UHGV virus genome: UHGV-0124835
DNA from: a virus
Strand: one strand, 5' to 3'
DNA: 16,897 nt
In this document: in pieces, positions 1,814 to 16,847 of the stretch
Position numbering within the stretch: position 1 is the stretch's first letter
Layout: every line of letters begins with the position of its first letter
Translations under genes and position numbers: made by a program
The notes under the pieces: model-generated
Told to the model about the DNA's origin: nothing
The model's database searches: none
What the model saw: only the letters and a program-made list of their open reading frames with translations

Positions 1814-2092
1814 TTACTTCCTTTTTATGGCTCGTAATTTTTTCAGGTGCTTTTCCTGCTCAGTGTCCGCGAGAATTTTGCGGTACTCCTGGTGGTCAAT
1901 ATGTTCGAACAGGCAGTTTAACTCACCAATGCGTACCCGCCCGGATCGTCCGTCCATCCGTCGAAAGAACACTGAGTGCTCAGTGATACGAGTAATCACC
2001 ACGGGGTATCCGGCTCTGTCCGTGTATATCTGACCGCGTTGAATCAAAGCGAACATGTGGTTATCCCCATCGACAAATCGAGAACACAACAA
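1814..2092 (-). CDS. hypothetical protein, possibly the remnant 3' part of a disrupted upstream gene
   Basis: 92-aa track ORF whose first codon is TTG with no convincing SD; an internal ATG (Met13) has a weak GGGGA upstream. A G6 tract lies just upstream in the junction with the previous gene. Confidence 0.35.
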   Translation of the reverse strand: MLCSRFVDGDNHMFALIQRGQIYTDRAGYPVVITRITEHSVFFRRMDGRSGRVRIGELNCLFEHIDHQEYRKILADTEQEKHLKKLRAIKRK

Positions 2093-2141
2093 ACGCTGCT
2101 GCGAATACCACCCCCCAGAGTTACGATTGCATCAGGCCAGC

Positions 2142-2885
2142 TCATTGATTCACCTCCTGCCTGTCGTCCGGCATTCGCTCACTACAGCTTATCCAACCAT
2201 CCGGAGTTACCGGAACTTGTGGAATGGCTGTCTGCTCTCGAACGTCATTAGGCGCTATAGGTTCTGCTGCCAACTGACTGGCATATTTGTTAATGGTAAC
2301 GATAAGCTCTTGCTCAGCCTCATCCAGACAATCACCGATACCTCGCCTGTCACCGTCAAAATCATCGAAATCGGCACGAATCCTGGCAACCTTCAGGATT
2401 GCGGACAACACCTCACTAGGAATTGCCGGATAGTTGGTTGACGTTTCCGCGATTTCCCGAAAATTATTGGTTGACGAATTCTTGTTTTCCCGAAAGTTTC
2501 CGGACTGAAGCATGGCGGCGCGGCAGGCGTTCCATATTTCGGCAGCAATATCGCGCTCGCTATCGGTTAATTTGTACGTTGAAACATAGCCAGAGAGCAT
2601 TTCTACGTTTTCCGGAGTTGCTTCTTCAGGCACTACCGGTGCTGGCGGGGCGATGCGTCCAAGCAACTTATTTACCTCTTTCGCCATCGCGTCATATTTA
2701 TCTAAATGGCGATTAGCTTCTAAGCAGACTCGGCGCATCTGATCTGAGTTAACTCGTTTAACTGGATCTGCTTCCAGCGATGCCAGCGCAATCCGTGCCA
2801 GTTCCATTTGTTCACCACGGGTAAGCCCGTTTTCAAGCGGATTTTTAATGAACAATTCAATACGTTCTTTGGTAATAGTGGTCAT
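2142..2885 (-). CDS. hypothetical phage protein with truncated DUF551-like C-terminus
   Basis: 247-aa ORF; C-terminus ...PDGWISCSERMPDDRQEVNQ* resembles the start of the DUF551 motif (WIsv.drlPe...) but stops before the rest of that domain. Confidence 0.7.
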   Translation of the reverse strand: MTTITKERIELFIKNPLENGLTRGEQMELARIALASLEADPVKRVNSDQMRRVCLEANRHLDKYDAMAKEVNKLLGRIAPPAPVVPEEATPENVEMLSGYVSTYKLTDSERDIAAEIWNACRAAMLQSGNFRENKNSSTNNFREIAETSTNYPAIPSEVLSAILKVARIRADFDDFDGDRRGIGDCLDEAEQELIVTINKYASQLAAEPIAPNDVREQTAIPQVPVTPDGWISCSERMPDDRQEVNQ

Positions 2886-2895
2886 GTGTTACTCC

Positions 2896-3159
2896 TTAAC
2901 CCGCAGTGCTTTCAACTGATGAGGGGAACAAAATCTTTTCATCAAACCCTGCATTCATATCATTGACAGCAACACACCAATCCATTGACGAACGATTATC
3001 AAGAGCCTCCATGATTTCATCCATGCGGCGCAGGTCATACAGGTAAATGCTTTTATCGCCAATGGTGTAAAAACCAATTTTTTTCGGTGATGGGCAGCGA
3101 TCAAGAACGTCCTGTAATTCGCTCAACCATGCTTGTTCTTTTTTTGTCAAAGTTGCCAT
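2896..3159 (-). CDS. hypothetical protein (87 aa)
   Basis: Track ORF 2896..3321 trimmed to the internal ATG at 3159 (MATLTKKEQAWLSELQ...), preceded by AAGGAGAG and lying 1 nt after the TGA stop of the upstream gene. Confidence 0.6.
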   Translation of the reverse strand: MATLTKKEQAWLSELQDVLDRCPSPKKIGFYTIGDKSIYLYDLRRMDEIMEALDNRSSMDWCVAVNDMNAGFDEKILFPSSVESTAG

Positions 3160-3160
3160 A

Positions 3161-3784
3161 TCACTCTCCTTTGATGCGAATGCCAGCGGCGCGCTCGGCT
3201 TCACTTTGTTCCCAAAACCACTTGTGAAGCTCCATAAGCTTTTCGTCAATCGGTGCATATTTGCGATTAAAGTAGGCCTGAGCATCTTTCTCAGATTCGT
3301 CCGGCAATTCGCCTGGGCCAAACAGTGTGTTATAAATCCATGCCAGTCCGCTTTTAGCGTCGCCAGTTGCCTGCCATTCGATAATCGCAGCCTGCATGAC
3401 CAGAATGTTTTTCCCGATTAACAGGTCCAGCTCTTTGAACCGGTTGCGGATGTATGCATTCTCGCTTTGTAATTTTGCGTTGCGCTTCTCTGCGGCTTCC
3501 AGCTCAACACGCAGCTTCCCTACAGTTAGCGCAATTTCCTCGTTCTCCTGATCGCGGCGTTTTATGTATTGCTGGTTTCTTTCCCGTTCATCCAGTAGTG
3601 CCAGCACGGTTTCTGGTCCGGTCAGAAATTTGAAGGCATTGAGCGCATCAATATCCACACCGTAATCTTTAAGTTCCTGTTCACTTAACAAATCATCATC
3701 AGTTGGCAACATTAACAGGCGTTCCATTGCTGGAATTGCACGTTCTGCTGCCTCACGCAGTGCCTGGTAATTAATTTCGCTCAC
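3161..3784 (-). CDS. Ead/Ea22-like family protein
   Basis: 207-aa ORF; GTG start preceded by AAGGAGG; N-terminus MSEINYQALREAAE... matches the characteristic N-terminus of lambdoid Ea22-like proteins (from memory). Confidence 0.7.
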   Translation of the reverse strand: MSEINYQALREAAERAIPAMERLLMLPTDDDLLSEQELKDYGVDIDALNAFKFLTGPETVLALLDERERNQQYIKRRDQENEEIALTVGKLRVELEAAEKRNAKLQSENAYIRNRFKELDLLIGKNILVMQAAIIEWQATGDAKSGLAWIYNTLFGPGELPDESEKDAQAYFNRKYAPIDEKLMELHKWFWEQSEAERAAGIRIKGE

Positions 3785-3830
3785 TGGTTGCCTCCTTTGC
3801 GAAGCTCTGCGGCTAAATACTCCAACGCCA

Positions 3831-8843: not shown

Positions 8844-8962
8844 GTCGAACCTCCTTTGGTTCTTTTGTTTATAGGGATCAAAAGGATAACTGAAGGAAGG
8901 TTCGGCACCAATAAGTACGAATGTGCGGAATCTTAAAAGAATTTATCCGTAAGGAGATGGCA

Positions 8963-9568
8963 GTGAACACCGCAATTTTTAACGACAAAGCATCCATGAC
9001 CAGCGTTGAGATCGCAGAGCTGGTGGGTAGTCAGCACTCAGATGTTAAACGTAGTATCGAACGCCTGGTTGCTAAAAACATCATCCGGAAACCGCCAATG
9101 GCTGTTTCCGAGAAAATCAATAACTTAGGTTTTAAAGTTCAATATGAGCATTACCTGTTTGAAGGAGAACAAGGTAAGCGCGACAGCATCATTGTCGTCG
9201 CACAGCTCTGCCCTGAATTCACTGCTCGCCTGGTAGATCGCTGGCGTGAACTGGAAGAACAGATCCGTAAGCCAATGAGCGAAATCGAAATGGTTGCCGC
9301 GATGGCTCTTGAAGCCGTTCGCCAACAGAAACGGATCACTCAGGTGGAAGAAAAAGTCAGCCACGTTGCTGAAACAGTCGAGCAAATTAAAAAGGGCACT
9401 ATTCGTGAGGGCTATGCCGGATATCGCCAACTGAAAGCAAAAACCGGTTTGTCAGATGATAACCGCGAGGGACTCGCTGGTATCACCCGAAAATGGGGTT
9501 ATTTCAGGTTATTGGTTGGCAGCGGTGAAAAAAAGCCGGGAGTAACCCGGCTCACTCAACATCAATAA
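8963..9568 (+). CDS. Rha-family phage regulatory protein (antirepressor-like), paralog 1
   Basis: Motif MTSVEIAELVGSQHSDVKRSIERL typical of the Phage_pRha family. The track ORF starts at ATG 8921 with no SD; an in-frame ATG at 8957 abuts the AAGGAG; the GTG at 8963 has the best SD spacing and is used here. Confidence 0.75.
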   Translation: MNTAIFNDKASMTSVEIAELVGSQHSDVKRSIERLVAKNIIRKPPMAVSEKINNLGFKVQYEHYLFEGEQGKRDSIIVVAQLCPEFTARLVDRWRELEEQIRKPMSEIEMVAAMALEAVRQQKRITQVEEKVSHVAETVEQIKKGTIREGYAGYRQLKAKTGLSDDNREGLAGITRKWGYFRLLVGSGEKKPGVTRLTQHQ

Positions 9569-9658
9569 CGGGGAGCTGTTTCGCATAAAACGGCTCCGAA
9601 ACATCCAAGAACAGTTCTAAAGATATCAGCAGCTATATGATCATTTCAAGACCAAATA

Positions 9659-9687
9659 TTGATTCTGCAATTTCGGGACGTTACACT
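9659..9687 (+). promoter_or_regulatory. sigma70-like promoter of Rha module A (TTGATT-N17-TACACT)
   Basis: Read directly: TTGATT, 17-nt spacer, TACACT; the same element recurs almost base-for-base at 10315..10343. Confidence 0.55.
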
Positions 9688-9795
9688 GTCTCTGCACCTT
9701 ATAAAGCGGGTGCCGGGGGTCGCAGCCCGGAATTGCATACGGCGATATATGACGCGCCAGCGTCTTTTTTATCGTCCGCGCTCACGCACGCCAGA

Positions 9796-9906
9796 ATTAT
9801 GGTGGGCTGGGCAGGGGAGCCGAAAGGCTCGCCGGTTTCCGTATGCGCCGGTACTGCGAACCCTGTTCAGTTCACCACCCATGAGTTTCGCAGCTCCGGT
9901 GGTGGA
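9796..9906 (+). ncRNA. c4-like antisense RNA candidate, module A
   Basis: Conserved ATTATGGTGGG box; GAAA-tetraloop hairpin 9817-9830; CCGG-closed 12-nt loop TTTCCGTATGCG (9836-9847) complementary to TGCATACGGAGG at the SD of the downstream gene; 8-bp TCACCACC/GGTGGTGG stem (9872-9879 with 9898-9905). Ends are not defined. Confidence 0.5.
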
Positions 9907-9916
9907 AGTTATCCAT

Positions 9917-9928
9917 TGCATACGGAGG
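9917..9928 (+). promoter_or_regulatory. antisense target site overlapping the SD of Rha paralog 2
   Basis: TGCATACGGAGG pairs with loop 9836-9847 over 12 positions (9 Watson-Crick plus 3 G-U); a direct repeat of the core ATTGCATACGG is at 9731-9741. Confidence 0.5.
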
Positions 9929-9936
9929 CTGCCATC

Positions 9937-10299
9937 ATGGCTACTGTCCTAACTTCCCCATTCCTAAAAATCGAAGTCGTCAACGGCAAGGCCGTTATTT
10001 TCTCCCTGCATGTTGCCTGCCATTTCAAGCGCATGCACCAGAACATCGTTGACAAAATCGAGTATCTGAACTGCTCACGCGAGTTTTTTACCCGCAATTT
10101 CATACCGGGTACTTATCACATCTACGGTGACTCCCTGCGTGGTTATTACATCACCCTTGATGGTCTGATGATGCTTCAGCTTGGGTTAAGTCTGCGCACA
10201 ATGCGGTACTACGAGAGCTGCATTGAAGCATTCCATGAGGCTGAAACCGTCCAGGGTCACTCCGCGTTCCGTCGTAATCAACGGGAGGTGCACCTATGA
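9937..10299 (+). CDS. Rha-family phage regulatory protein, paralog 2 (120 aa)
   Basis: ATG at 9937 with GGAGG 8 nt upstream; Rha-like core IEVVNGKAVIFSLHVACHFKRMHQNIVDKIEYLNCSREF...YYITLDGLMML. The track ORF extends upstream to 9637 through the leader; that extension is judged non-coding. Confidence 0.65.
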   Translation: MATVLTSPFLKIEVVNGKAVIFSLHVACHFKRMHQNIVDKIEYLNCSREFFTRNFIPGTYHIYGDSLRGYYITLDGLMMLQLGLSLRTMRYYESCIEAFHEAETVQGHSAFRRNQREVHL

Positions 10300-10314
10300 T
10301 CCGCCACCAGCATA

Positions 10315-10343
10315 TTGATTCTGCAATTCCGGGACGTTACACT
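10315..10343 (+). promoter_or_regulatory. sigma70-like promoter of Rha module B (TTGATT-N17-TACACT)
   Basis: Same element and spacing as 9659..9687, inside a ~60-nt block nearly identical between the two modules. Confidence 0.55.
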
Positions 10344-10451
10344 GTCTCCGCACCTTATAAAGCGGGTGCCGGGCGTGGAAACCCGAAATTCAATATAGAG
10401 CACAACCGCGCTCATGCGGTTTTTTCGTGTCATGAGCATCGTTACGCCCAA

Positions 10452-10564
10452 ATTATGGTGGGGCGTGCAGGGCCAACTTCGGTTGGGCCGGGTTCTATGT
10501 TGACCGGTATTTCCACCCCTGTACGTCTCACCACCTATATGGTCGTGGAAAGCCTTGGTGGTGA
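10452..10564 (+). ncRNA. c4-like antisense RNA candidate, module B
   Basis: Same architecture as module A with compensatory changes: UUCG-tetraloop hairpin CCAAC-TTCG-GTTGG (10473-10486); CCGG-closed 12-nt loop GTTCTATGTTGA (10492-10503) complementary to TCAACATAGGGG at the SD of the downstream gene; conserved TCACCACC/GGTGGTGA stem. Confidence 0.5.
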
Positions 10565-10575
10565 GTTCATTGAAT

Positions 10576-10587
10576 TCAACATAGGGG
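10576..10587 (+). promoter_or_regulatory. antisense target site overlapping the SD of Rha paralog 3
   Basis: TCAACATAGGGG pairs with loop 10492-10503 (9 Watson-Crick plus 2 G-U); an upstream near-repeat TCAATATAGAG is at 10390-10400. Confidence 0.5.
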
Positions 10588-10595
10588 CTGTCACC

Positions 10596-11147
10596 ATGAC
10601 TACTCTCCCAACCCAATCTCACCCTGAAATCACGATTATCAATGGTCGCGTTGTCACCACATCTCTTGCAGTAGCTAATTACTTTACTAAACGGCATGAG
10701 CGGGTTTTAGATAGAATTAGAAACCTCGAATGTTCCGCTGAATTTACTGAACACAATTTTGTGTTAAGTGAATACACCGACGCATCAGGCCGCAAACTCC
10801 CTTGTTACCAAATCACCCGCGACGGTTTTGCGTTTCTTGCCATGGGCTTCACTGGTAAACGTGCTGCCCGGTTCAAAGAGGCATACATCAACGCCTTTAA
10901 CCTGATGGAGAAGAGTTTATCAGGTGCCGATGCGTCTGATATGTCAGCTGTCGCACGAAACGCCAGAGGCGTATACCTGCATTTGCGTGAAATCCATCAA
11001 ATCTGGACAAGCCAGCTTTATCCAATGCTTAAGGCCGTTGAATCTCCGCTGGCTAGCAAACTGTACGACCGTGTTGGTGATGCTGTTTTTGGCGCTGCAC
11101 TTGTTGATTCCAGGCTGAATGGTTCTGACAAGGAGGTTCGCCCATGA
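10596..11147 (+). CDS. Rha-family phage regulatory protein, paralog 3 (183 aa)
   Basis: ATG at 10596 with AGGGG 8 nt upstream; Rha-like core ITIINGRVVTTSLAVANYFTKRHERVLDRIRNLECSAEF...YQITRDGFAFLAMGFTGKRAARFKEAYINAFN. The track ORF extends upstream to 10296 through the leader. Confidence 0.65.
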   Translation: MTTLPTQSHPEITIINGRVVTTSLAVANYFTKRHERVLDRIRNLECSAEFTEHNFVLSEYTDASGRKLPCYQITRDGFAFLAMGFTGKRAARFKEAYINAFNLMEKSLSGADASDMSAVARNARGVYLHLREIHQIWTSQLYPMLKAVESPLASKLYDRVGDAVFGAALVDSRLNGSDKEVRP

Positions 11148-11338
11148 TTAGTTACGAAATCATCATCTCCACTACGGAATACAGAAACGATGTATCAGTT
11201 CGCACGGATGTATCTGTCTGGCACCGTCGCTATAAATCCAGAAAAACAGCGGAACTGAAAGCGGCAGAGATGTGTGAAACCATCTCAATGAAAGGTAGCC
11301 CGGTTAAATACGTAACTACGGCGGAGGTGCGTCCATGA
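11144..11338 (+). CDS. hypothetical protein (64 aa)
   Basis: ATG overlaps the stop of the Rha gene (ATGA); AAGGAGG upstream. Confidence 0.6.
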   Translation: MISYEIIISTTEYRNDVSVRTDVSVWHRRYKSRKTAELKAAEMCETISMKGSPVKYVTTAEVRP

Positions 11339-11559
11339 TCCGCCACATCGTTAATTCCCTGTATCACCGATACAACCGTTGCCCCCGTGTGGGGCAGTGG
11401 TTCGCCACCAGCAACGGTCACGTTCTGCGGGTTTGCCTAGTCAACGCTGAAAGCCAGAAAGTCGTGTGCGAACTACAGGGGCGTAGCTACACCATCAGTT
11501 ACCCTCTGGCGGTATTTCTGTCTGGAAAAATGTTTAAGCGTCTGGGAGGTGTGGCGTGA
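11335..11559 (+). CDS. hypothetical protein (74 aa)
   Basis: ATGA overlap with the upstream stop; GGAGG upstream. Confidence 0.6.
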   Translation: MIRHIVNSLYHRYNRCPRVGQWFATSNGHVLRVCLVNAESQKVVCELQGRSYTISYPLAVFLSGKMFKRLGGVA

Positions 11560-11855
11560 ACTGTTTTCAGTTTGTGTGCGGATGTGCTTTCGATAACCCG
11601 ATTCAGCGCCTAATTATGTTGCGTGTTTTGATGTCGGGTTCTTCAGACGGTGAAGGCGAGAGAGTTATTGATCATCAGGTGCTTGCTGATTTCTGCTGTT
11701 GTTCTAAGCAAGCGATATTCAGGGAAACCCTGGCACTGGAAAGAGCTGGTTATCTTCATATCCGAAAAATTGCAACGCTTACTATTGATGCAAAAGCCAG
11801 ACTACAACCTGCGCGTGGCTACACAATTCTCATGCCGCGGAAGGAGGTTGTATGA
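11556..11855 (+). CDS. hypothetical protein (99 aa), possibly winged-helix DNA-binding
   Basis: GTG start overlapping the upstream stop (GTGA) with GGGAGG upstream; translationally coupled to the replication gene that follows. Confidence 0.55.
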   Translation: MNCFQFVCGCAFDNPIQRLIMLRVLMSGSSDGEGERVIDHQVLADFCCCSKQAIFRETLALERAGYLHIRKIATLTIDAKARLQPARGYTILMPRKEVV

Positions 11856-12844
11856 GCCGTTACGCCCCCACACCGGAAGTTATGGCTATTGGTCAAATTA
11901 ATATTTCCGGCAATGTTACACCTGCGAACTGGTGGAAATATATTCGACTACCCAGTGGGCGTCCGGATGCGACGGCTATCGCTCTGCTTTCAGAGATCGT
12001 TTACTGGTACCGCCCGACAGAGGTCAGGGATGAGCACACCGGAGCGTTGCTGGGATATCGCAAGCGTTTTCAGGGCGACAAACTGCAAAGAAGCTACCAG
12101 GCGTTTGCTGAGCAGTTTGGTTTCGGGAAAAGGGAAACCGCAGATGCGCTGAAGCGTCTGCGCGATGCAGGGTTTATTACTCTGGATTTACGCACGGTGG
12201 AAATGCTCGATGGGGTGAAATGCAGCAATATTTTGTTTGTCGGGATCAACCCACAGGCAATTGCGGCCATCACCACACCTTCTTCTGTTTCGCCAGAAAG
12301 TAACAGCAATAATGCAATCAGCGATACAGCTATTACGTTAAAACGGAACAGCCCCCGACGTCATAACGGAACAGGGGATACGCCGAATGTTGATACAAAT
12401 ACAGAGATTACTACAGAGATTACAACGGAGACTAAAAACACTATTGATGCATCCGCTGACGCGTCTGCGCCAGCGCGTTCTGCCCGACAGGAATATTCAC
12501 CGGAATTTGAACAGGCCTGGCAGGAATATCCCAAACGTGCTGGTGGCAATTCCAAGTCAGCAGCCTTCAAAGCCTGGAAAGCCCGTATCAGGGAGGGAAT
12601 AAAACCGGAGACCATGCTTGATGGCGTGAAGCGGTATGCCGCCTGGGTACGTGCTACAGGAAATACCGGCACACAGTTCGTGAAGCAGGCTGCGACGTTC
12701 TTTGGACCCGATCGTCACTTCGAAGATTACTGGCAACAGCCAGCCGCTCACGGAGGTGGGCGACAGCGACAGGTCGATGTCCTGGCTGGCCTGGGAGCCA
12801 TGTCTGACAAATTCGGTAAATCCAGTAACAAATTGACATTCTGA
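11852..12844 (+). CDS. phage replication initiation / replisome organizer protein (O-like)
   Basis: 330-aa ORF, ATGA-coupled to the upstream gene; two-domain layout with an internal low-complexity linker containing DNA direct repeats; C-terminal region EFEQAWQEYPKRAGGNSKSAAFKAWKARIREGI... resembles the conserved C-terminus of enterobacterial phage replication proteins (from memory). Confidence 0.75.
   Translation: MSRYAPTPEVMAIGQINISGNVTPANWWKYIRLPSGRPDATAIALLSEIVYWYRPTEVRDEHTGALLGYRKRFQGDKLQRSYQAFAEQFGFGKRETADALKRLRDAGFITLDLRTVEMLDGVKCSNILFVGINPQAIAAITTPSSVSPESNSNNAISDTAITLKRNSPRRHNGTGDTPNVDTNTEITTEITTETKNTIDASADASAPARSARQEYSPEFEQAWQEYPKRAGGNSKSAAFKAWKARIREGIKPETMLDGVKRYAAWVRATGNTGTQFVKQAATFFGPDRHFEDYWQQPAAHGGGRQRQVDVLAGLGAMSDKFGKSSNKLTF
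12343..12436 (+). repeat. short direct repeats inside the O-like gene (candidate iterons)
   Basis: AACGGAACAG at 12343 and 12365; tandem 12-mers ACAGAGATTACT / ACAGAGATTACA / ACGGAGACTAAA at 12401-12436, encoding TEITTEITTET. Confidence 0.45.
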
Positions 12845-12854
12845 GGTGACAGCG

Positions 12855-13754
12855 ATGATGACGATTGACCAACGTGAGAAACAAACAAGACTACAGGCGC
12901 GAATGGATGAGTTACGGGCAGAAATGGATGAGTTACGGGCAGAGATTGCATTTGCTCAGAAGGGCGAAAAGCCATGGCCTTATCGTTCCTGCCTGATGCG
13001 TGAAGATCGCGGATATTGCGAAAAACACGGTAAATATCGTACGCATATACTGGTGTGGATCGATCGTAATGGCGAGGACAGAGAAAAAATTTCATGCTGC
13101 CCTGACTGCTTGATCGCTGAGGCCAGTGATTTGACCATGGAACTGTCGTCCCTCAAGGCGGAAGAACTGACTGATAACGCCGGAATTGCTCTGCGTTTTC
13201 GGGACTGCGAGTTTGATAATTATCTGGAGGTTAATCCTGACGCAGCCAGAAATCTTGCGGCCTGTCGCCGCTATGCGGAGAACTGGCCAGATATGCTGGA
13301 GAACGGTACCAGTATTGTTATGACCGGCAGTTGCGGTACCGGGAAAAATCATCTGGCGGTATCAATGGCAAAACACATCATCCGTAACTATCTGGCCAGT
13401 GTGGAGATCACCGACGTGATGCGCCTTACCCGGGCTGTGAAAAACTGCTGGCGGAATGACAGTGAAAAAACAGCGGATGACGTCATTGAGCATTATGCGT
13501 CACTGGATTTGCTGATTGTCGACGAAGTCGGCGTTCAGTTTGGCAGTGCGGCTGAAATGGCCATTTTGCAGGAAATTATCAATGCCCGGTATGAGGGTAT
13601 TTTGCCAACTATCCTGATCAGCAACCTTTCACCGGAAGAATTGTGGGCGTTCATCAGTCCCCGGATTGCCGACAGGATCACCGATGGCGGGCGCAACTGG
13701 TTGTCGTTTAACTGGCCCAGCTACCGTTCTCGTATCGGAGGTGTTGCCGCATGA
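12855..13754 (+). CDS. DnaC-like helicase loader (IstB-like AAA+ ATPase) with N-terminal Cys-rich extension
   Basis: Walker A GSCGTGKNHLAVSMAK and Walker B LLIVDEVG. The track start at 12846 is a GTG overlapping the SD; ATG at 12855 follows GAGGTG at good spacing. Confidence 0.85.
   Translation: MMTIDQREKQTRLQARMDELRAEMDELRAEIAFAQKGEKPWPYRSCLMREDRGYCEKHGKYRTHILVWIDRNGEDREKISCCPDCLIAEASDLTMELSSLKAEELTDNAGIALRFRDCEFDNYLEVNPDAARNLAACRRYAENWPDMLENGTSIVMTGSCGTGKNHLAVSMAKHIIRNYLASVEITDVMRLTRAVKNCWRNDSEKTADDVIEHYASLDLLIVDEVGVQFGSAAEMAILQEIINARYEGILPTILISNLSPEELWAFISPRIADRITDGGRNWLSFNWPSYRSRIGGVAA
12903..12944 (+). repeat. 21-bp tandem duplication (2 copies, 20/21 identical)
   Basis: ATGGATGAGTTACGGGCAGAA followed by ATGGATGAGTTACGGGCAGAG; an in-frame duplication of the heptad MDELRAE in the N-terminus of the DnaC-like gene. 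Confidence 0.8.
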
Positions 13755-15151
13755 CCAGCCAGAACACCCCGGCATGGCGTAACGATGACCTGGAAGGCGC
13801 TGTCATCGGTGCGTTTTTTCTGCGTGGGGCCGATCCGGAAGTGATGGATATTCTGGCCACACTTCCGGCGGATGTATTTTTTGTGCGTCAGTACCGGGAT
13901 ATTTACGCGGGGATTTGCAGACAGGCTCGCATATCCGGCGTCATTGACCCCGTACTGCTGTGCAATGAGATGCCGGAACTTGCCCCGGTGATTACCGACA
14001 CCGGACGCAAAACCTGGGTGAAGTCTTCACTGGAGCACTATGTCGCAGCGTTGCGGCGCAATGCCGCACTGCGCGATGCAGAAAAAACACTGACTGAAGC
14101 ATTACAGAATTTACGTGATGCGTATACCTGTGAAGCAGCCGAGGATGCCCTGAAGGATGCGCAGAACATGATGGCCTCACTGTCGACCGGAAAGGGCGTC
14201 ATTCAGCCGGTTCACATTGATGATGTCCTTCCGGAAGTGGTCGACCGTGTTGAATGCCGCAATCAGGGACTGGAGAAATCCAGGGCGCTGATGACCGGTA
14301 TTGATGAACTGGACGCAAAAACGGGCGGTATGGAGCCCGGAGACCTGGTATTCATTGCCGCCCGTCCTTCGATGGGGAAAACCGAACTTGCGCTGGACAT
14401 CATCGACAAGGTGACTGAGCAGGGGCATGGCGTGCTTCTGTTCACCATGGAGATGGCGAACATCCAGATTGGTGAACGTATGGTGTCTGCTGCCGGTGGA
14501 ATGCCGGTATCCCGTCTTAAGTCTGTTGCCCGTTTTGAAGATGAAGACTGGGCGCGTTTCACGCAGGGCGTGGGACGAATGACGGGGCGTAATATCTGGA
14601 TGGTGGACCAGGCAAACCTGACCATTGATGAGATATGTGCAACCACGAAGCACCACCGGATGAAACACCCGGAAACGGCGCTGGTGGTGGTCGATTACCT
14701 CGGCCTGATTAAAACCCGCAGCACGGGGCGTCACGACCTTGCGGTGGGGGAAATCTCAAAGGGACTTAAAAGCCTGGCAAAATCCGGCGGTTTTCCGCTG
14801 ATTGCTCTGAGCCAGCTCTCCCGCGGCGTGGAATCCAGACCCAATAAACGCCCAATGAACTCGGACCTGAAAAACTCCGGGGAAATCGAGGCGGATGCCG
14901 ACATCATTCTGATGCTTTACAGGGATGAGGTATACAACCCGGAAACTCAGGCCAGAGGCATAGCAGAAATCAACATCACGAAACAGCGTAATGGCACGCT
15001 GGGTACCATTTACCGGCGTTTTCATAACGGGCATTTTCTGCCTGTGGATCAGGAGAGTGCCCGGGTTCTTTCCACACCCATGACGCCGGGCAATCCGCGC
15101 AGATACAGCAATAACCGCATGTCGGGCAGTAAAACGGAGCGTTTATTTTGA
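13751..15151 (+). CDS. DnaB-like replicative DNA helicase
   Basis: 466-aa ORF, ATGA-coupled with GGAGGTG upstream; Walker A GDLVFIAARPSMGKTELALDI and overall DnaB-family organisation. Confidence 0.9.
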   Translation: MTSQNTPAWRNDDLEGAVIGAFFLRGADPEVMDILATLPADVFFVRQYRDIYAGICRQARISGVIDPVLLCNEMPELAPVITDTGRKTWVKSSLEHYVAALRRNAALRDAEKTLTEALQNLRDAYTCEAAEDALKDAQNMMASLSTGKGVIQPVHIDDVLPEVVDRVECRNQGLEKSRALMTGIDELDAKTGGMEPGDLVFIAARPSMGKTELALDIIDKVTEQGHGVLLFTMEMANIQIGERMVSAAGGMPVSRLKSVARFEDEDWARFTQGVGRMTGRNIWMVDQANLTIDEICATTKHHRMKHPETALVVVDYLGLIKTRSTGRHDLAVGEISKGLKSLAKSGGFPLIALSQLSRGVESRPNKRPMNSDLKNSGEIEADADIILMLYRDEVYNPETQARGIAEINITKQRNGTLGTIYRRFHNGHFLPVDQESARVLSTPMTPGNPRRYSNNRMSGSKTERLF

Positions 15152-15405
15152 ACAACAGAACAATCACTGTTTCACCGGAACAACTTCGTCGGCAGGCGCA
15201 GGAGATGCTTCGTTGTGCTGAACAGATGGAAAAAACGAGCGTGGCAAAAGATACGCTCCGCAAGCAGCTTACTCCGGCGCTTCGTGATCTGCTGCAGGCA
15301 AAACACCGTACACAAAAGGCGGTGGATGAGCTGGTGGATTGCGTGGAGGAACTGGAAGGACAGGTAAGCCAGTTTGAAATACTGGTGAAGGAGTTTACTG
15401 CGTGA
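15148..15405 (+). CDS. hypothetical coiled-coil protein (85 aa)
   Basis: TTG start overlapping the dnaB-like stop with ACGGAG 8 nt upstream; the start codon is uncertain. Confidence 0.5.
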   Translation: MNNRTITVSPEQLRRQAQEMLRCAEQMEKTSVAKDTLRKQLTPALRDLLQAKHRTQKAVDELVDCVEELEGQVSQFEILVKEFTA

Positions 15406-15426: not shown

Positions 15427-16446
15427 ATGCATTCAATATCGTTTGCTGAGGTGACCGTGAGAGCACTGCTGACCCCTGAAATTGCCCCGCGTATGGGGAT
15501 TGTATTGTTCAGGCCCGGTTCAGAGCTGATGCCCCTGTTTATGCAGGGGCGTGTCCTGCTGGAGCCTGAGCCGGAACGTTATTCATCTTTCGCCAGTGGT
15601 GCCGTTCCGGCGGCATCACAACCGCTGGCGGATGATCCTGCCGTTCGGGCCGTGTTCCGCAATGAGGCAGTGATCCGTCGTGCTGGTGGCGTGGAATGTC
15701 TTGAAAGCTGGTTACTTCGTGAAAAAGGCTGCCAGTGGCCTCATTCCGACTGGCACAGCGAGAACATGACCACAATGCGACACGCTCCGGGTGCAATCCG
15801 TCTGTGCTGGCACTGCGATAACCAGCTGCGCGATCAGTTCACGGAACGGCTGGAATCAATGGCAACGGATAACTGTGCCCGCTGGGTGTTGTCTGTTGTG
15901 CGTCGGGATCTCGGTTTTGATGACAGTCACGTTGTGACAATGCCGGAACTGTGCTGGTGGCTGATTCGTAATGACCTGGCGGATGCCTTACCGGAAAGTG
16001 CAGCCCGTAAGGCACTGAGATTACCGAAGCCTGTTGTGCCGTCTGTCACCCGGGAAAGTGACCTTGTGCCTTCGGTTCCTGCCACCAGCATCATCCAGGA
16101 TAAAGCGAAAAAGGTGCTGGCGCTGAAAGTGGATCCGGAGTCGCCGGAGTCTTTTATGTTACGCCCAAAACGTCGTCGCTGGGTTAATGAAAAGTACACG
16201 CGCTGGGTTAAGACGCAGCCGTGTGCATGTTGTGGTAAGCCAGCCGACGATCCTCATCACCTGATTGGTCATGGTCAGGGTGGAATGGGTACAAAAGCGC
16301 ATGACCTTTTTGTGTTGCCTTTGTGCAGAAAACACCATGACGAACTACATGCGGATACCGTGGCATTTGAAGAGAAGTATGGTTCCCAACTGGAGCTGAT
16401 ATTTCGTTTTATCGATCGCGCGCTGGCGATTGGTGTGCTGTCCTGA
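15427..16446 (+). CDS. DUF968-like phage protein with Cys/His-rich C-terminal motif
   Basis: 339-aa ORF; C-terminal region ...[48 protein letters not shown]... resembles DUF968 proteins found upstream of Q genes in lambdoid prophages. The start could instead be the in-frame GTG at about 15457, which has a GAGG SD. Confidence 0.7.
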
Positions 16447-16463
16447 TTTTGTGGAGAAAGTTG

Positions 16464-16847
16464 ATGCGTGATATTCAGATGGTTCTCGAACGCTGGGGAG
16501 CGTGGGCGGCTAATAATCATGAAGATGTGACCTGGTCGTCCATTGCCGCCGGTTTTAAGGGATTAATTACTTCAAAAGTAAAATCTCGCCCGCAATGTTG
16601 TGACGATGACGCGATGATTATTTGCGGGTGCATGGCCCGTCTGAAAAAGAACAACAGCGATTTGCACGATTTATTAGTAGATTATTATGTAGTCGGTATG
16701 ACATTCATGTCACTGGCAGGTAAGCATTGCTGCTCTGATGGTTATATCGGGAAAAGGTTACAGAAGGCTGAGGGCATAATTGAAGGGATGTTAATGGCAT
16801 TAGATATCCGGTTAGAGATGGATATCGTTGTTAATAACTCTAATTAA
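16464..16847 (+). CDS. antitermination protein Q-like (Phage_antitermQ family; resembles DLP12 QuuD from memory)
   Basis: Track ORF trimmed to the ATG at 16464 preceded by GGAGAAAG; 127-aa product [24 protein letters not shown]... with Cys-rich segments, positioned as the last early gene. Confidence 0.7.

Follow-up and report, generated by a model that had tools for sequence, protein, structure and literature searches.

In Bacillus phage SPP1, the origin binder G38P, the loader G39P and the DnaB-type helicase G40P are encoded in one operon and form a reconstituted helicase-loading system; the loading machinery of the host is unable to load G40P (PMC3561973). According to a global survey, phages that carry no helicase frequently encode a DnaC-type loader (PMC4889955), and a phage gene has been suggested as the source of dnaC itself (PMC5109545). 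Here, we analysed the replication genes of the virus genome UHGV-0124835, a stretch of 16,897 nucleotides (nt) referred to as the window. Its gene content (open reading frame (ORF) calls, Pfam, PHROG and RefSeq) identifies the early region of a lambdoid Escherichia coli prophage, with, in order, an integrase, early-left genes, a cI-like repressor, cro, two Rha-type regulators, small ORFs, the replication genes, a DUF968/HNH protein and the antiterminator Q. The replication genes encode an initiator (ORF1), a DnaC-like loader (ORF2) and a DnaB-family helicase (ORF3), identifiable proteins with intact motifs. Across homologous loci, loader and helicase are co-inherited, and the helicase system present depends on the type of tail domain carried by the initiator.

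A previous reading of the window from its letters alone, hereafter the sequence-only reading, had presented this arrangement as unusual among lambdoid phages. It is not rare: the same genes are annotated in phiP27 and in many Shiga toxin (Stx)-converting phages, and the module is ordinary, widespread and already described as a replication module in the records. What we add is the head/tail modularity of the initiator, a candidate origin, and the limits of the labels "O-like" and "DnaC-like".

Initiator head/tail swaps and co-inheritance of loader and helicase

The head and the tail of the initiator are exchanged independently among homologues. The ORF1 tail was found behind at least four other heads, those of P0080, P0074 (HTH_36), P0070 and L17 of phiP27, and was always followed by the loader and the helicase. 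Downstream of these swapped-head tails lie a DnaC-like gene of 292 amino acids (aa), a DnaB-like gene of 463-471 aa with a 4-nt overlap, and an ORF of 80-85 aa, the initiator and loader genes being separated by 10 nt in the metagenome-derived loci. In the reciprocal arrangement, where the ORF1 head is joined to another tail (P0068 and P0069), the initiator is followed by a Toprim/AAA_25 primase-helicase fusion of 623-629 aa, and no loader is present.

Co-occurrence follows the same lines. All 80 IMG/VR loci picked by the loader had the tail upstream and the helicase downstream, and loci picked by the tail alone contained the loader (78 of 79) and the helicase (77 of 78); behind the ORF1 tail domain, the helicase was never found without the loader. 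In a collection with one genome per species, each of the 18 loci with a full-length loader (44-91% identical, from 11 named enterobacterial genera) had an abutting downstream DnaB-family gene, and the tail was upstream in 16 of the 18. More distant DnaC-like proteins, about 30% identical, matched in their AAA+ part only and probably including host dnaC, had no helicase within 5 kb. Taken together, the swap and co-occurrence patterns argue that the tail specifies the helicase system, and that loader and helicase are inherited as a pair.

Three loci were considered as counter-examples and set aside. The two species-level loci without the ORF1 tail, L093 and L094, have initiators disrupted by insertion sequences (IS). 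L174, the exception among the loci picked by the tail, has neither the AAA+ domain of the loader nor the helicase and results from a deletion that fused the loader N-terminus in frame to the C-terminal end of the DUF968 protein. L093 (E. coli CP178302.1) additionally carries, at 1927-3786, a Toprim primase-helicase-like ORF with an apparent intein inserted directly after the P-loop (GHGK, followed by ACPL...), the intein-like part displaying the LAGLIDADG-like motifs LLGDGSL and LLETDGYV. This ORF is truncated by IS3-type transposase fragments, which also replace the initiator upstream of the loader.

Identity of the encoded proteins and gene junctions

ORF3 is a full-length DnaB-like helicase, as first read: PF03796 (DnaB_C) matched residues 180-426 at 249 bits (cut-off 27) and PF00772 (DnaB N-domain) residues 12-89 at 25.7 bits (cut-off 23), the match to phrog_19 reached 3.2e-115, and the protein aligned to residues 34-457 of E. 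coli DnaB (E=7e-64), with an N-domain, a linker and a RecA-type C-domain. A degenerate or ATPase-dead paralog, the case that the sequence-only reading had named as fatal to it, is not what we found. Indeed, all catalytic motifs are intact in the alignment with E. coli DnaB: Walker A AARPSMGKT (K210/T211), TMEM with the catalytic E234, Walker B VVVDYLG (D315), SQLSR, and the arginine finger KQRNG (R413). ORF3 is 40% identical to P22 gp12 over 452 aa and 33% identical to K-12 DnaB, and P1 Ban matches its C-domain at 38%. The chains 3bgw and 3bh0, annotated as "DnaB-like replicative helicase" and which we take to be SPP1 G40P, match it at about 1e-47. ORF3 scored below the NCBIfam equivalog cut-offs for DnaB (TIGR00665, 310.2 vs 385.25), phage_DnaB (TIGR03600, 279.7 vs 498.65) and enterobacterial DnaB (222 vs 898), which by sequence comparison places it in a divergent phage clade of the DnaB family.

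ORF2 likewise proved to be a DnaC-like loader, with matches to PF01695 (IstB_IS21, 54.1 bits, cut-off 24.1) and to phrog_50, "DnaC-like helicase loader" (1.8e-87). The PDB sequence search returned DnaC and DnaI-type chains only, and the top Foldseek match was DnaC in the DnaBC complex (6qem_G, 1.5e-6). Residues 90-296 align with residues 41-242 of K-12 DnaC, to which ORF2 is 31% identical, and Walker A (G158-K164, GTGKNH), Walker B (D223/E224, DEVG), sensor I N257, D273 and the arginine finger R274 are invariant in 30 homologues. Because the pairwise identities to gp12, DnaB and DnaC are low and the equivalog scores fall far under their cut-offs, ORF2 and ORF3 appear to be phage lineages and not recent copies of host genes.

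The DnaC-like label nevertheless has limits. The score of ORF2 against enterobacterial DnaC (NF005931) was 124.7 bits vs a cut-off of 357, and residues 1-89 have no DnaC counterpart, so that no homologous N-terminal helicase-binding segment was found. The N-terminal ~100 residues were instead modelled by AlphaFold2 (AF2) as a helix, a Cys/His beta-ribbon and a helix (predicted local distance difference test (pLDDT) score 85-96), a module not present in E. coli DnaC and in which C55, H58, C82 and C85 are invariant in the 30 sequences. The model was poor in the AAA+ part (pLDDT mostly <50), and the N-terminal module alone was used. The adjacency to a DnaB-family gene in all 18 species-level loci suggests that ORF2 binds and loads a DnaB-type hexamer.

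In DnaI-N, the helicase-interaction domain of B. subtilis DnaI, zinc is bound by Cys67, Cys70, His84 and Cys101 (PMC2673437). Homology of the ORF2 N-domain to DnaI-N was considered and dropped, as Foldseek against PDB gave AAA+ matches only and no DnaI-N entry. The Cys/His module, C-x2-HG...CP-x-C, recurs in related loaders of mEpX1, Pseudomonas phage Skulduggery and Vibrio phage X29, and the loaders of Gifsy-2 and SPN3UB are without it. We rejected it as a marker of loaders serving a phage helicase, because the first three have the motif and no adjacent helicase gene. The perfect 21-bp duplication within ORF2 repeats a heptad of the N-terminal helix and accounts for its length compared with the 292 aa of most homologues; in the homologue alignment, the 7-residue insertion is seen only in the 299-aa variant, and both variants are common in IMG/VR.

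ORF1 matched phrog_270, "replication initiation protein" (6.6e-78), and had no match in Pfam (E<=0.01), NCBIfam or PDB sequences. The AF2 model (m0b9623c91e98) comprises a confident winged-helix head (residues ~30-142), a disordered linker (143-213), a helical tail domain (217-298) and a disordered C-terminal end; the fold search returned weak generic winged-helix matches only. The tail domain has 28 invariant positions in the homologue alignment, with no PDB match by profile search and none in a Pfam scan at E<=10. It is presumed to be the docking domain for the loader and the helicase. The RefSeq name "LvrA C-terminal domain-related" found no counterpart in the NCBIfam scan.

Whether ORF1 deserves to be called an O-like organizer, as had been proposed, depends on what is compared. 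In architecture the name stands: the AF2 model, the comparison of the repeat arrays with the annotated iterons of lambda and the tail-partner swaps together reveal the layout of an O-type initiator, with a head, iterons within its own gene, a linker and a partner-specific tail. In sequence it does not. ORF1 did not match Phage_rep_O (PF04492), BLASTP against lambda O yielded nothing meaningful (best segment 8/26 identities, single-comparison E=0.025), and the link to the "O-like" families of PHROG is a single weak match (phrog_391, 6e-7). BLASTP against P22 gp18 and E. coli DnaT gave no meaningful similarity either.

The initiator, loader and helicase genes lie consecutively within 11852-15151, all on the + strand, in agreement with the sequence-only reading. 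Overlapping stop and start codons, which it had claimed throughout, are present between ORF2 and ORF3 (ATGA, 13751-13754) and not between ORF1 and ORF2, where 10 nt separate the stop (TGA, 12842-12844) from the ATG at 12855. This ATG is the RefSeq start, agrees with the conserved N-termini among homologues, and is preceded by a GAGGTG Shine-Dalgarno sequence that spans the ORF1 stop; even the alternative GTG start gives no overlap with ORF1. The coupled chain is otherwise longer than had been noticed, extending upstream through the ORF0/ORF1 overlap (ATGA) and downstream through the ORF3/ORF4 overlap (TTGA). A scan within the module identified no convincing promoter or + strand terminator. As in an SPP1-type module, the genes for an origin binder, a loader and a DnaB-type helicase thus follow one another in one operon. 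The coordinates of the features are collected in Table 1.

Table 1. Genes and sequence elements of the replication module, in window coordinates
Feature	Position	Strand	Description
ORF0	11556-11855	+	99 aa; small optional gene; stop overlaps ORF1 start (ATGA)
ORF1	11852-12844	+	330 aa; replication initiator (origin organiser); phrog_270
Candidate origin iterons	12289-12380	+	four units in a 23-bp register; two strong, two degenerate
12-bp tandem repeat	12400-12431	+	TACAGAGATTAC x2.7; encodes the TEITTE linker; Tandem Repeats Finder (TRF) score 50
ORF1 tail domain DNA	12500-12745	+	residues 217-298; motif EYSPEFEQAWQEYPKRAGGNSK...FFGPDRHF
ORF2	12855-13754	+	299 aa; DnaC/IstB-type AAA+ helicase loader; alternative GTG start 12846
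21-bp perfect tandem duplication in ORF2	12902-12943	+	2.0 copies, 100% match; duplicates heptad MDELRAE
ORF3	13751-15151	+	466 aa; DnaB-family replicative helicase; start overlaps ORF2 stop (ATGA)
ORF4	15148-15405	+	85 aa; TTG start overlaps ORF3 stop (TTGA); phrog_2565, function unknown

Two small genes flank the module. ORF0 carries a weak Crp-like helix-turn-helix and matches positions 3-93 of the 223 of phrog_4617, another family of phage "replication initiation proteins" (2e-29). It is found in only some loci with the ORF1 head; in Raoultella it stands as a separate gene upstream of an initiator whose head is a different one. The idea that ORF0 is the detached or fused head of another initiator was therefore rejected as regards a fusion, the gene being free-standing also in Raoultella and absent from many ORF1-head loci; its product could serve as a regulator or be an orphan DNA-binding head. 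ORF4, annotated in RefSeq and predicted to form a coiled coil, matches its PHROG family at 4.8e-30. It was present in 75 of 80 loci picked by the ORF1 tail and was not detected in the more distant species-level loci; it may be an accessory factor of the helicase.

Further out, two small ORFs at 11144-11559 (64 aa, phrog_7046, and 74 aa, phrog_1153, both of unknown function) are ATGA-chained ahead of ORF0, and in most related loci, regardless of head type, the 74-aa ORF is the immediate upstream neighbour of the initiator. On the other side, a 339-aa DUF968/HNH-type protein (15427-16446, PF06147 at 271.6 bits) separates the replication module from the antiterminator Q (16449-16847, PF06530).

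Candidate origin, proposed mechanism and rival explanations

Head-specific direct repeats are located in the DNA coding for the start of the linker. In the window, the two strong units of this array are 12335-12351 (ACGTTAAAACGGAACAG) and 12358-12374 (ACGTCATAACGGAACAG), and the exact 10-mer AACGGAACAG was found, within the window, only at 12342 and 12365. Since 23 is not a multiple of 3, the reading frame differs between the two copies, and the repeat is therefore conserved as DNA. In relatives with the same head, an ACGGAAC/ACGTAAC core is retained, partly as inverted copies, and other heads carry repeat arrays of their own, with six clear 23-bp units in each of L007 and L011. The annotated iterons of lambda occupy a comparable position in O, with a 20-24-bp spacing.

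The 12-bp tandem repeat lies in an A-rich patch of lower GC content (0.37 at 12380-12439) and is kept downstream of the iterons in several head types and with both tail types. DNA matches to Stx phages start at window position ~12401, and those to phiP27 at ~12442. This region is a plausible candidate for an unwinding element, a recombination joint, or both.

We consider it probable, on the strength of gene identities, motifs and neighbourhoods, that the module constitutes a self-contained cascade of initiator, loader and helicase which uses the primase and polymerase of the host. The winged-helix head of ORF1 would bind the head-specific, 23-bp-register repeats within its own gene, and the adjacent A-rich 12-bp tandem-repeat region would then open. 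The tail domain would recruit a complex of the ORF2 AAA+ loader with the ORF3 DnaB-type hexamer, through presumed physical contacts between the three proteins, and ATP-bound ORF2 would open or assemble the ORF3 ring on single-stranded DNA and leave after hydrolysis. Host DnaG primase and DNA polymerase III (Pol III) would complete the replisome, a step proposed because the window shows no gene for a primase, an SSB (a protein that binds single-stranded DNA) or a polymerase. A self-contained helicase-loading system had already been suggested by the sequence-only reading, and it is the best-supported account of the gene identities, the motifs and the co-inheritance in 18 of 18 species-level loci; the part of it that concerns independence from host DnaB and DnaC is one that we infer.

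A broader proposal can be advanced only tentatively, and we hold it to be possible but rather doubtful. Initiators of this kind would consist of exchangeable modules, namely a head that comes with its own iterons and a family-less tail of ~85 residues, the latter being a specific adaptor for one helicase system (a primase-helicase fusion, or a DnaC-type loader together with a DnaB-type helicase). The conserved 12-bp repeat would connect these parts, serving as both recombination joint and unwinding element, and the Cys/His loader would be exclusive to the phage helicase, so that the widespread Stx-type prophages would replicate without need of host DnaB and DnaC.

Several points weigh against the self-contained cascade. 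The iteron array of the window is itself weak, with two good and two degenerate copies, and the literature searched yielded no experiments on any of the module's members. In Serratia fonticola (L097 and L098), the loader is 67% identical to ORF2 and the adjacent helicase only 47-48% identical to ORF3, unlike most loci, in which the two identities track each other. This mismatch implies that the loader/helicase pair can be recombined, and suggests that gene recombination between them took place in the S. fonticola lineage. In addition, P22 gp12, despite its relatedness to ORF3, is encoded with gp18 only and with no AAA+ loader, which implies that a DnaB-type phage helicase need not have a loader. 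The mEpX1 loader, 44% identical and carrying the same Cys/His module, stands beside a lambda-type O and is followed by Ren, with no helicase within 3 kb, which implies that the ORF2-type loader family can presumably act on host DnaB. ORF2 could, in the same manner, act at the phage origin to load host DnaB, the presumed role of lambda P and mEpX1-type loaders, leaving ORF3 as a second helicase that ORF1 recruits directly (as gp18 does gp12 in P22), that serves a later replication mode, or that backs up DnaB like P1 Ban. The Skulduggery and X29 loaders, also without an adjacent helicase gene, and the match of Ban to the ORF3 C-domain fit this explanation, as do the mEpX1 locus and the loader-free gp18/gp12 pair of P22. 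It is nonetheless unlikely: loader and helicase genes are adjacent in every species-level locus and overlap by 4 nt, the helicase does not occur without the loader behind the ORF1 tail, and ORF2 is just 31% identical to host DnaC, with no match to the first ~40 residues of the latter. Such strict pairing makes loading of host DnaB the less likely role.

A double role for ORF2, in which it would load the phage helicase and also trap host DnaB in an inactive complex, shutting down host replication in favour of the phage, draws only indirect support from dnaC overexpression, which is reported to inhibit replication through continual rebinding to DnaB (PMC4828956), and from the DnaC-type AAA+ core that ORF2 retains. 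The N-terminal module is however unlike that of DnaC and ORF2 bears no sequence sign of host DnaB binding, and we regard such trapping as improbable. Lower still do we rate the chance, a very slim one, that the prophage is defective and retains the module only as a non-functional remnant. Decayed copies are known, namely the IS-disrupted initiators of L093 and L094 and the loader-DUF968 deletion fusion of L174, and in three IMG/VR loci (L025, L056 and L058) the helicase match is interrupted or shortened in otherwise near-identical surroundings, which may reflect frameshifted or pseudogenised copies in some prophages. In the window, on the other hand, all ORFs are intact with invariant catalytic residues, closely related modules occur in records deposited as phage genomes (88% identical in phiP27, 85-95% in Stx-converting phages), and homologues are full-length across the 11 named genera, down to 44-50% identity. 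We conclude that the self-contained cascade remains the preferred explanation.

Distribution and comparison with known systems

Of 5426 complete E. coli genomes searched, 480 carry the module, with identities that reach 99.6%, and its relatives in many Stx1a/Stx2a-converting phages include the "Eru7" reference LC567818. phiP27 (Stx2e; L17, L18 and L19) and the Stx phages resemble the window in the order and spacing of the ORF1 tail, the loader, the helicase and ORF4, which are 85-95% identical at the DNA level, and in their records the annotations read "putative replication protein DnaC" and "putative helicase". They do not share ORF0 or the ORF1 head with its iterons. Eru7 phages also share with the window the Rha-family genes placed downstream of cI/cro and ahead of the replication genes.

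In the interval from cro to the replication genes, the window contains ORFs at 8921-9568, 9637-10299 and 10296-11147, the last of which carries Ash and Rha domains; the near-identical genome L002 annotates two Rha-family genes over 8921-11147. The gene content of this interval defines the Eru7 type of Stx phage in the literature, and encodes regulators, not replication proteins. Eru typing uses just two genes next to cI (PMC8044961, PMC8951638), here Rha-type regulators, and the Eru papers consequently contain no discussion of the actual replication genes. Eru7 is described as particularly widespread (PMC8951638), and a link between toxin output and the efficiency of phage replication has been drawn (PMC8044961). 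The practical value of our findings is modest. Among E. coli prophages that convert to Shiga toxin production, and related ones, the module is one of the common replication types. The natural head/tail swaps provide a ready design to ask which part of an initiator determines origin choice and which one the choice of helicase system, and a DnaC-type loader with its cognate phage DnaB in E. coli could be compared, in a tractable setting, with the well-studied complexes of DnaB with DnaC and with lambda P.

Compared with the host system, the module resembles E. coli DnaC-DnaB in the AAA+ core of ORF2 and over most of ORF3, and differs from it at the loader N-terminus, where DnaC has a short segment and ORF2 the ~90-residue Cys/His module. 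With P22, it shares the helicase type, ORF3 being nearer to gp12 than to host DnaB, and the placing of the initiator gene directly upstream in the same operon; it differs in the loader, for which P22 has no gene between genes 18 and 12, and in the initiator, gp18 being unrelated to ORF1. The likeness to lambda O/P extends to the DNA-binding head, the mid-gene iterons with ~23-bp spacing, the flexible linker, the partner-specific C-terminal domain and the loader gene next downstream, whereas neither ORF1 and O nor ORF2 and P are meaningfully similar, and lambda has no helicase of its own and recruits host DnaB. SPP1 differs from the window in encoding its own SSB, none being seen in the window, and in its loader: G39P is a 14.6-kDa, non-AAA+ protein with no homology to other studied loaders (PMC3561973), whereas ORF2 is an AAA+ ATPase of the DnaC/IstB type, and the PDB sequence search with ORF2 returned no G39P chain. 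What SPP1 and the window have in common is their logic and gene order, with a non-DnaA origin binder, a dedicated loader and a phage-encoded DnaB-type helicase, acting in SPP1 with the primase and polymerases of the host (PMC3561973).

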